Below, in pieces: positions 1 to 3,000 of a DNA stretch of 25,301 nt. The DNA is from a virus (lineage: Duplodnaviria > Heunggongvirae > Uroviricota > Caudoviricetes): positions 1 to 25,301 of IMG/VR virus record IMGVR_UViG_2579779076_000012. One strand, written 5' to 3'. The position numbers are program-made. Each line of letters opens with the position of its first letter. Position 1 is the stretch's first letter.

Positions 1-3000
1 ATGCGTGATGGTTTGTTAGATTCTACTAAGCAAGCAATAAGCGAAAGGATTAAAAGCCCATTATGGGGATTCATCATTCTTACATGGGTATGGTTTAACT
101 GGCCTAATTTAGCCATGCTCTTCATGAGCGATGCCCCTGTAAAATTCAGAATTGATTATATATTGCTACAGGAGGATTTTTATCTATTATTTGTAGTCAG
201 ACCAATAGCAATTGGTTGTCTATTGGCAATTGCATCACCATATATTAATTTGTTGTTATCTAAAGCTCATGAATGGGCAGATGATAAACATTCAAAGGTG
301 GTTGCTAAAATAAAAAAGAGACAATTAAAAGATGCGATTGCATTTGCTAAGATACAGGTCGAAGCAGATAGAGCTAAAGAAATAATTAATCATGAAATTG
401 ATATTGATAAAAAAATAAAGGAAGAAAAACTAAAGCAAGAACAATTGAATACGGAGAGCTTAAAGGAAGAGATTGAACAAATGAAGAGAGAGCTTGAAAC
501 ATTGGCTGAAACCAAGGGGAATATTAGAAGGGCAAGGGATAAATATGTTAGTGATGCAAAGCGATATCATTTTGATGTTGCTCGCCTGTTAGCTTTGGTT
601 ACTTCTGTGGTTAATGCTCAAACAATCGAAGAGTTATTAGAGTTTAAAAAGAAGGCTAACTCAATTATTTCACCTACAGAACTAGATAAGGCTGTCTTGA
701 AAAACAAAATTGATTTAGAGGAAAAAATGACAGATGAAGAATTGGTAAGATTCTTTGACTATATAGGAACTTCCTTAAGTAAGGAAGAGGAAGTGAAATC
801 AGAAGTCAATTAGAAAACAGAGAGGGGGGATTATGACTAGATAATTTACCAGTAAATAACAGGAAGATATCAGGTTAGTACCTATGCAATTTAACGGTAT
901 TTTTCCAAGTATCTATGCAATCCTACACAGATTCTATGCAGTATCGGTATAGCCCCTTTTTAGCATAACTTATTGAAATATATAGAGAATCTGTGAAGTC
1001 TCTTTTCAGGGTAAACTGTGTCGTGTTAGTCGTCCCTCTCCAGACACTACATATAGTGCTATATATAGGGCTATATAACGATATATAGTTGTTTGACCAC
1101 TACCAATATTCCCTCAAAGTGACTATCAAGCTGATTAACAGTTTCCCATGTGAAAGTTAGGAGGTGATGGTTATAGTTCCTTCGTAGTTCCTCTTAAAAA
1201 ATCACTTACAGACATCTTAATCTCTATACAGATTTCACGTAGAACACGCTTAGTGCGTAAAACGGCTATTATGTTAAAAACACACTGTGTTTATATCAGT
1301 ACTGATTTATAAGGGTTTTGTGTATTGGCTGATAAGAGGCTATACAGCACCTTGAGAGCATGTCTTATAAGTCATTGACACATAAGGTCACAGAAGTTTG
1401 TAGCTGTTACAGAGAAAACTGGATAGGACTTCACAGAACTATAAAATGTTACAGCTATTGATAGGTGAAATCTTCTTGATAGATGCTTTGAAGTGTGGTG
1501 AATGTTTCTTGAGGTGGAGTTAACAGATGCTATGAAGAAAGTCAATAATTGGTTATAGATATTTTAACTGCTTTTGCAAAGGGGGGAGCTATATCGTGAA
1601 TCTGGGGTACTTAACAGCCATCAATTGAGTGTAGATATTTTTGAAGATTATCGGTGAAGGGGAATGTAGAGGGGTTACTACGATATTTATAAAAATTTTC
1701 AGACTCTGAAAAGTTACTGTACAAATTTTATACAAACAAAAAAGGACTCCGGTGAAGGAGTCCTCATCAGGTAGATTTTTAATGTGGCTACTACCATCCA
1801 CCCATACCGCACCAAACCTTACCCCACCCTACACGACCTTACCTCGCCGGACACTGCCATAGAGAGTGTGCTTGGTTGCTTTGGAAGTAAACCTAGTACA
1901 GTAAGCCATTATACATATCGAGATAGTAACGTCAAGAAACTTTTAACAGGAGGGGTTCCTATGGTCACATATCCCCTCTCTTTCCACTAAGTAAGCCTTG
2001 GCAGTACCTAAGCAACAATTGACTAACAGATTCGGTAGAGTCTATCTCATAGGTCAACTTCATAAACTCAGAGCTAAGTTACCTTGAAAGATTCTACCAA
2101 GAAACTACACAGGTGTTATTTAGTCTAACTGTGAAGGGATATTTAACGGGAGAGAAAGTAACGATATACCGAAGGTGAGTTACATCTTAACAGCGACTGT
2201 AAGAGATACCTGAAAAGATACTTAACAGATGACTACCTAGAAAGAAGGGAAACGAAGAACCGTAGGTAGTGACCTTGTTAAACAGGCTGTTTCAAAAGCT
2301 CTTAAAAGTCTGTTAAGTAAGGTCATGTGAACAATCTTACCATTTTGTCAATGCCTTTGTCTTTGACCTAAATCAATAAAATGTATCGTTTGATATGGTT
2401 TTAAGCAAAATAGCTAAAAATCTTTTTTAGAGGGGCGCTTCGCTTGGGGTCACTATGAATGATTTTTCTCTCGTCAAGAGGGAAGTTACAGAGGTCTTTC
2501 AGAGTCTCAATAGCCAACCGAGGAACAAGCGAAGAACCGGGAAAAAAATCTATTGCCCCCTGAAACAAGGTCTGTAAAGGTCGTTTAAGAGGTCGGCTAA
2601 GAAAGGAGCTTCCCTCTCTGGGGTTATCGCTCTTCTCCCGATTAGTGGGGCGGTTAAGAATGCCTCTGAAGTTATCTGTGAAGATACTGAACAGTCTTAT
2701 ATATATGGGTGATTACAACTCATTGAAAAATAAGTATTTTTAGAAGTTACTGTTAAGGCTACAGAGTTAACTGTGAAGAGACTTGTCAGTTCTCTATATA
2801 TGGCTAATTACAACTTATTGAAAAATAAGAGCTTTTAGAAATTACTGTTAGAGAGGTGAATGCTTGATAGGTGCAGCTTCCCGGTTCTATCAAGCTATTT
2901 TTTAATGGATAGCACAAAATGCTAAAGACACCCCTATACCATCACGTACAGGGGGTTGAAGGGAGTTTAACGGGGGTCTGTGTGGTTGTCTGTTCTGGTC

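Follow-up and report, generated by a model that had tools for sequence, protein, structure and literature searches.

A 25,301-nt stretch of caudoviral DNA (IMG/VR record IMGVR_UViG_2579779076_000012, positions 1 to 25,301; hereafter the window) carries a tandem repeat of a 95-bp unit within an ~11.4-kb serine-recombinase island. The best joint explanation, a tentative one, is that the unit is a composite, cis-acting stretch of island DNA, in which operator sites may lie over a weak sigma-70 promoter for a + strand transcript of ~100 nt ending at 2905. Tandem Repeats Finder placed the repeat at 2670-2850 (period 95, 1.9 copies, 82% matches, zero indels), and the alignment of 2670-2755 with 2765-2850 gave 83% identity. 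The original prediction of a tandem ~95-bp duplication with ~80% identity was therefore borne out, at 2670-2859 and 82-83%, as was its placement of TATATAT and TTGAAAAATAAG in both units.

The 95-bp unit, its conservation and its copies

The repeat and the terminator behind it comprise the following elements.

2670-2764, + strand: unit 1, type A, CTGTGAAG-ATA-CTGAACAG; from sequence and repeat finding, unit 1 types differing among relatives
2765-2859, + strand: unit 2, type B, CTGTGAAG-AGA-CTTGTCAG; equivalent to the sole unit of single-unit relatives
2676-2694, no strand assigned: imperfect palindrome of unit 1, 19 bp; from the motif count, with CTGTGAAG near-invariant in the relatives' units
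2771-2789, no strand assigned: imperfect palindrome of unit 2, 19 bp; from the motif count and relatives' units
2698-2706, + strand: TATAT box of unit 1 (a TATATAT run), candidate -10 element; present in all units, not flagged by the promoter scan
2795-2801, + strand: TATAT box of unit 2 (a TATATAT run); from sequence and relatives' units
2716-2728, - strand: predicted core of an integration host factor (IHF)-like site in unit 1, TTTCAATGAGTTG, 12/13 versus WATCAANNNNTTR, with an A/T tract before it
2811-2823, - strand: predicted IHF-like core of unit 2, TTTCAATAAGTTG
2862-2904, + strand: intrinsic terminator, a GCTTGATAG / CTATCAAGC hairpin (2862-2895) and then a T-run; from sequence and strand stability

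The half-site CTGTGAAG starts at 2676 in unit 1 and at 2771 in unit 2, and the inverted second half-site is CTGAACAG in unit 1 versus CTTGTCAG in unit 2. The predicted N3-CTT(G/T)TCAG-like second half fits unit 2 only, because the second half-site of unit 1 is CTGAACAG.

Units from 8 E. coli, 65 metagenome, 4 GTDB and 3 IMG/VR loci gave ~90 distinct units for comparison, and the unit was found in every island variant examined, the most divergent (L002) included. CTGTGAAG is almost invariant across these units. The spacer between the half-sites is always 3 nt and takes at least nine different triplets, while the second half-site, degenerate but keeping CT..(C)AG, reads CTGRACAG in type A and CTTGTCAG in type B. 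The TATAT(A/T) box always lies 3-5 bp past the palindrome, and GTGAAG-N15/16-TATAT[AT] is constant. After the box comes a conserved A/T-rich block, TGGsTrATTACAAcTyATTGAAAAATAAG, and past this block one hypervariable triplet and TTTTAGAAATTACTGT; in the last unit, the hairpin and T-run then follow. The conservation of 2804-2824 (2709-2729 in unit 1) is partly ascertainment because the 21-nt pattern used for collecting lies within the unit. The minus strand of the A/T-rich block reads TTTCAAT(G/A)AGTTG, which is near-consensus at 12/13 to the IHF core; WATCAANNNNTTR, the IHF consensus, served as the yardstick for the predicted cores in both units.

The half-site centres are 11 bp apart, which is one helical turn. 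The invariant half-site, the free spacer of fixed length and the degenerate partner point to the footprint of a two-fold-symmetric DNA-binding protein. The earlier proposal of sites for a dimeric regulator is partly supported by these features; against it, the promoters at 3373 and 5222, the main ones of the island, bear different symmetric elements.

It is highly improbable that the repeats act as RNA, as hairpins or a structured domain of a long + strand non-coding RNA reaching the terminator. A terminator does exist on that strand, and RNAalifold proposes pairing between UGUGAAGA and UCUCUAUA, in which one pair alternates between A-U and G-C; the alternation at this sole covarying pair goes with the two allele types and does not reflect independent changes. 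At -5.4 kcal/mol over 142 columns the consensus energy is very low in magnitude, covariation is weak, and the single-sequence folding z-scores on the + strand are unremarkable (-0.9 and -1.3). The two central mismatches of the palindrome are uncompensated in every type, and neither an Rfam family (by the gathering score, or with E relaxed to 5) nor a tRNA was found. A structured RNA was rejected on these results, and the weak RNA covariation leads to the sites being read as protein-binding DNA.

A coding role for the unit was also considered. Open reading frames (ORFs) of 12 codons at 2704-2742 and 2800-2838, with an ATG or TTG start and a TAG stop, would encode a micro-peptide M(G/A)(D/N)YN(S/L)LKNKxF in each unit. 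The start and the stop 12 codons on are kept in 79 of 89 distinct units, and one inner triplet (codon 11) is hypervariable yet always 3 nt long. Against this barely credible explanation, a Shine-Dalgarno sequence is absent, the start codon overlaps the TATAT box, the variation is nearly all non-synonymous with no third-position excess, and the divergent clade reads on to 19 codons.

The number of units is polymorphic: of the 62 loci in which the downstream gene for a 93-aa protein is present as well, two units occur in 37 and a single unit in 25. Where there are two, the second is type B throughout and the first is A or B; single units are of either type. From this distribution, the two-unit allele looks like the product of unequal crossover between diverged A and B alleles and not like an old duplication in place. 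That the duplication is a neutral product of slippage or recombination, with only the ancestral unit or nothing at all of importance, is very unlikely. One- and two-unit alleles do occur together in both protein clades, and this island copy is decaying (recombinase truncated, first operon gene split). On the other side, two-unit alleles form the larger class, every conserved block is present in both copies, and the single unit is kept in all variants despite heavy mosaic replacement nearby.

The half-site CTGTGAAG recurs beyond the repeat. Seven copies were counted in the window versus 0.82 expected, and 0 of 100 shuffles gave seven, in line with the original prediction of a number far above chance; the four copies then named (991+, 2129+, 2676+ and 2771+) were all confirmed. 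The three additional copies lie at 1429-1436(-), at 5531-5538(-) in another intergenic region of the island, and at 23799+ in the neighbouring prophage, the last of which is probably due to chance. The 19-bp pattern CTGNNAAGNNNCTNNNCAG (CTGnnAAG-N3-CTnnnCAG) has five distinct sites, at 991, 1329, 2210, 2676 and 2771, versus 0.01 expected, and all five lie within 814-3452. The wider CTGTNAAG motif occurs 18 times in the window versus 3.7 expected, with 11 of the 18 inside the gene-free region. The sites outside the repeat and the region that holds them are as follows.

814-3452, no strand assigned: gene-free control region, 2.6 kb, with all 19-bp palindrome sites inside; from the ORF scan and relatives' annotation
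978-1009, no strand assigned: inverted copy of the unit-2 core, TATATAGAGAA plus CTGTGAAG-TCT-CTTTTCAG; from repeat finding, kept in most of 51 loci
2129-2136, + strand: lone CTGTGAAG half-site with TATTTAG before it; from the motif count and relatives
1429-1436, - strand: CTGTGAAG half-site with TTTATAG before it; from the motif count and relatives
2210-2228, no strand assigned: weaker palindrome, CTGAAAAG-ATA-CTTAACAG; spacer length differs among relatives

Both the 2129 and the 1429 half-sites have a TATAG-type box 2-5 bp upstream.

Several known classes of site were compared with the unit and rejected. A CRP site (TGTGA-N6-TCACA) would share the left TGTGA, and the right half is TGAAC, TTGTC or TTTTC, with the partner at N9. 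The LexA box is CTGT-N8-ACAG (16 bp), whereas unit 1 has CTGT-N11-ACAG (19 bp) and type B lacks ACAG. The unit does not resemble the 26-bp hix/gix crossover sites of invertases, and no inverted segment, as expected of an invertible segment or an element bounded by terminal inverted repeats, was found among the 8 E. coli loci. Sequence of the CTGTGAAG type is absent from the attL/attR junctions of locus L001, and a serine-integrase att or pseudo-att site was therefore set aside.

Proposed operator-promoter organization and candidate binding proteins

In the operator explanation, the 19-bp operator would comprise the invariant CTGTGAAG, the free 3-bp spacer and the degenerate inverted half. With the TATAT(A/T) box as -10 element, GTGAAG-N15/16-TATAT[AT] would have the layout of a weak sigma-70 promoter, and the A/T-rich block with its IHF-like core would complete the unit. 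A dimeric protein or a tandem ribbon-helix-helix (RHH) protein, from the island or possibly from a helper phage, would occupy the operators and gate a short non-coding + strand transcript, which would be ~100 nt long if started in unit 2 and ~195 nt long if started in unit 1, and would stop at the intrinsic terminator 2862-2904. Only the + strand has the T-run, and in 40 of 45 variants the terminator hairpin also folds more stably on the + strand than on the - strand; this conserved arrangement argues for a + strand transcript ending at ~2905. The 991, 2129 and 1429 sites may be further operators for the same protein, and unequal recombination of diverged alleles (CTGRACAG versus CTTGTCAG) would have supplied the second unit and, with it, tandem operator-promoters. 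Compared with a small-RNA gene, the unit has the Rho-independent terminator on the + strand, and its conserved GTGAAG-N15/16-TATAT[AT] is below the scan threshold.

Two genes downstream of the gene-free region encode candidate binding proteins.

4009-4290, + strand: 93-aa candidate DNA-binding protein with a tandem RHH-like pattern; from sequence pattern
4290-4676, + strand: 128-aa protein with a weak C-terminal helix-turn-helix; Pfam HTH_28 E=0.003, below the Pfam cut-off

The 93-aa protein, which is restricted to Escherichia and Citrobacter, has two beta-alpha-alpha repeats compatible with a tandem RHH fold. Its strands HTLTR and HIRI, presumed to read DNA, are conserved in both protein clades. 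Small candidate DNA-binding proteins with such clade-wide conserved strands would match an invariant half-site, and this correspondence is counted in favour of the operator explanation. The 93-aa protein has no Pfam, NCBIfam or PDB match, and PDB sequence searches with the orphan proteins of the island were empty. A 184-aa protein adjoining the region gave a model of moderate confidence (predicted local distance difference test, pLDDT, 70) without a PDB fold match.

The arrangement resembles the RHH operators of Arc and Mnt in the immI region of phage P22, which are imperfect palindromes of ~20 bp with subsites about one helical turn apart that overlap promoter elements. RHH operators of the Arc/MetJ type have two subsites, inverted or in tandem, whose centres are ~10-11 bp apart; in CTGTGAAG-N3-CTKNNCAG the centres are 11 bp apart, with a spacer of 3 in all units. 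As in P22, a small gene, here only predicted to be of the RHH type, is present in the element. There is no sequence homology to the P22 system, and here the sites are 1.2-3 kb away from the gene and occupy at least five places, with a tandem duplication at one of them.

Several results weigh against operators over a promoter. The -35 match is poor (3/6), and a consensus promoter scan called no + strand promoter in the unit. The RHH assignment comes from sequence pattern only, with an AlphaFold2 model that is unreliable at pLDDT 50. Protein clade and site type show no co-variation, which weighs against a link to the neighbouring protein. The weaker sites at 2210 and 1329 differ in spacing or half-site among relatives. 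Most units were collected by a pattern inside the unit, although the loci collected by BLAST give a like picture. No target of the putative RNA was found; an antisense target in a phage spanin gene was rejected because the 14-nt identity is same-sense with non-matching flanks and looks like chance.

Felix O1-like phages and the packaging alternative

Sequence comparison makes the island a probable satellite of Felix O1-like phages, and a candidate for an undescribed satellite or defence island against these virulent phages; a literature search found no published description of it. Its Dit-like protein is 80-82% identical to the product of the gene after the tape-measure gene in Felixounaviruses, its tape-measure protein has 26% amino-acid identity to the phage one, and no phage homologs were found for the other island ORFs. 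Phage I14.1 (PP892526) has a 581-bp direct terminal repeat (DTR) inside the 1.75-kb gene-free region of these phages, a region that is not discussed in the Felix O1 genome paper (PMC3185647). Two segments of the window match this phage region.

1538-1732, + strand: match to the right end of the Felixounavirus DTR plus flank; nhmmer E=1.3e-5 with an 11-phage profile, in 55 island loci
2222-2342, + strand: match to the inner part of the phage DTR; blastn E=2e-7, nhmmer E=2e-4, in 32 island loci

The first match was also obtained with blastn (window 1510-1736 versus the DTR right end plus flank, E=4e-9), and GATATTTTAA-N2-4-TTYTGCAAAGGGG is common to 17 Felix-like contigs and one island contig. 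The phage gene-free region carries an array of CTGT[TA]AAG / CTTGTTAG 8-mers on a single strand with ~11-bp phasing. The CTGTGAAG 8-mer is a member of the wider CTGTNAAG family, which is common to the terminal-repeat region of the helper-type phage. The Felixounavirus array motifs are CTTGTTAG, CTGTTAAG and CTGTAAAG (VpaE1 L011 13529-15280; I14.1 L013/L014).

Because phage terminal-repeat homology surrounds the units, the main rival to the operator explanation is that they serve packaging or replication as a pac- or ori-like site of nucleoprotein assembly; it is a serious rival because the element sits in a satellite-like island, and is somewhat unlikely in our estimate. A satellite or phage DNA-binding protein together with IHF would mark the island for the helper terminase or replisome, and extra units would resemble iterons. 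Segments of the gene-free region around the units match the 581-bp phage terminal repeat and its right boundary, and the phasing of the phage 8-mers equals the spacing of the half-sites here. Segment 2757-2789, made up of the unit-2 palindrome and the sequence immediately before it, resembles DTR ~37-70, with ~72% over 32 nt by pairwise count and nhmmer E=2.5. The IHF-like core in the unit and the polymorphic copy number fit as well, and the island, which has neither capsid nor terminase genes, is yet represented by an 11.2-kb circular contig.

Four observations weigh against a packaging or replication site. The unit has no significant homolog in the phage genome: the unit profile gave a best nhmmer E=0.3 on the VpaE1 genome and the phage profile E=2.5 on the unit, and homology of the unit itself to the phage terminal-repeat region was rejected. 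No Rep-, primase-, primase-helicase- or small-terminase-like protein was recognised among the island ORFs, and the 184-aa protein is without a fold match. The DTR-end-like motif, which lies at ~1610 in the window, is separated from the unit by a variable interval of 1156 to 1862 bp. A transcription terminator lies directly 3´ of the unit. A more specific proposal, that the island is the first E. coli satellite of virulent Felix O1-like phages, whose gene-free region mimics the helper terminal-repeat or packaging region and whose CTGTGAAG palindromes and 95-bp units divert helper packaging or replication through a satellite protein, is quite unlikely.

The circular contig is a metagenome sequence (L044) of 11,233 bp with identical 55-bp ends, which holds the complete island and lacks chromosomal flanks; the island thus occurs as a circle or concatemer. 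The serine recombinase of L044 differs (34% amino-acid identity), so that the contig represents an excised or packaged form with a swapped integration module.

Three known systems share parts of this organization. The type I iterons at crr and ori1 of P4 are two direct repeats of ~120 bp; the octamer that they carry binds the alpha protein and is found again at the distant ori. P4 and the island are alike as satellite-type elements with two direct repeats of ~100 bp and an octamer recurring elsewhere in the element; here, in contrast, no alpha-type primase-helicase or initiator is recognised, the octamer is another one, the copy number is polymorphic and a terminator follows the repeats. An iteron origin in general would have several repeats of one orientation beside an A/T-rich unwinding region; here there are two direct units plus sites in both orientations, and a TATATAG array (1041-1088) lies 1.6 kb away. 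No initiator domain was found in any island ORF. PLE of Vibrio cholerae is an island with a large serine recombinase that is linked to a virulent myovirus and has a non-coding region with RepA-bound iterons. It shares with the present element the small serine-recombinase island, the virulent myovirus link and the repeat-bearing non-coding region, whereas the island here yielded no RepA_N homolog, has a gene-free region that is in part homologous to the phage terminal-repeat region, and carries tape-measure and Dit-like genes. T7-type terminal repeats are flanked by short repeat arrays, and lambda cosB combines R sites with an IHF site. Phased short repeats and an IHF-type site beside genome-end-related sequence recall both; the unit here differs in that it is not homologous to the phage array.

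Typing, biocontrol and therapy all make wide use of Felix O1-like phages. Should the island be a satellite or a defence element against them, its control region would be where the phage is sensed or exploited, and the invariant CTGTGAAG sites would offer a precise handle on that region.

Other features of the island

The island spans window 1 to ~11300 within yecE (DUF72). Its parts are a variable first gene, the gene-free region, small orphan genes in an operon, genes for tape-measure (PF20155) and Dit-like (PF21821) proteins and a large serine recombinase gene; it is without capsid or terminase genes. The decay of this copy shows in its first operon gene, which encodes 184 aa in relatives and is broken here into two pieces (3453-3692 and 3810-4007), and in the recombinase ORF (9743-11262), truncated at 431 aa versus 507 aa in relatives. 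From 11329, the window holds a lambdoid Stx-type prophage, likewise at yecE; its segment 20589-20777 carries isrK (61.6 bits) and C4 antisense RNA (82.4 bits), an ordinary ant/immI-type region. The gene-free region was found in 551 of 5426 complete E. coli genomes (~10%), with a median of two places per genome and several integration sites; island carriers include several O157:H7, O55:H7 and ECONIH strains.

Within 814-3452, no credible ORF was found and relatives are unannotated, with one exception, 2967-3155(-), which encodes a membrane protein of 58-62 aa annotated in some relatives. The gene for this protein (MVNLPPELG..., 62 aa) comes with a minus-strand terminator and a promoter of its own, the latter divergent from the main operon promoter (elements at 2931-2954 and 3337-3401). 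A 21-bp inverted repeat, 3347-3367 / 3413-3433, brackets the divergent promoter pair and is a different candidate operator. A type I toxin-antitoxin pair with this adjacent small membrane protein gene was rejected for want of complementarity. Near-consensus sigma-70 promoters lie at 3373-3412 and 5222-5268, each followed by TTGTATATATAG.

The gene-free region behaves as a hotspot for selfish-gene insertion, according to its sequence in relatives. In L002, L006, L008, L010 and others it is repeatedly interrupted (≈1100-2500) by insertions, whose genes include a small serine recombinase or invertase (in both orientations), a Dam-like methyltransferase and an AP2/HNH homing endonuclease. TATATAG, which forms the tandem array at 1041-1088, also occurs in the phage gene-free region; its use as a general phage late promoter was rejected, the motif being limited to that region in the phage. 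A perfect 17-bp palindrome, TTTTCAGA-C-TCTGAAAA, at 1696-1712 lies to the right of the DTR-end-like segment and is kept in some relatives only.

A candidate small RNA at 1735-1935(-) has a strong TTGACG-16-TATAAT promoter (1935-1908), a body rich in G and T, and a terminator (1765-1742) that is likewise strong; it matches no Rfam family. BLAST gave a match to Felix-like phages at window 1770-1861, and the candidate body (1763-1861) has five homologous copies in Felixounaviruses. These copies lie downstream of the ligase gene, in two gaps between genes (VpaE1 57869-58104 and 59282-59634).

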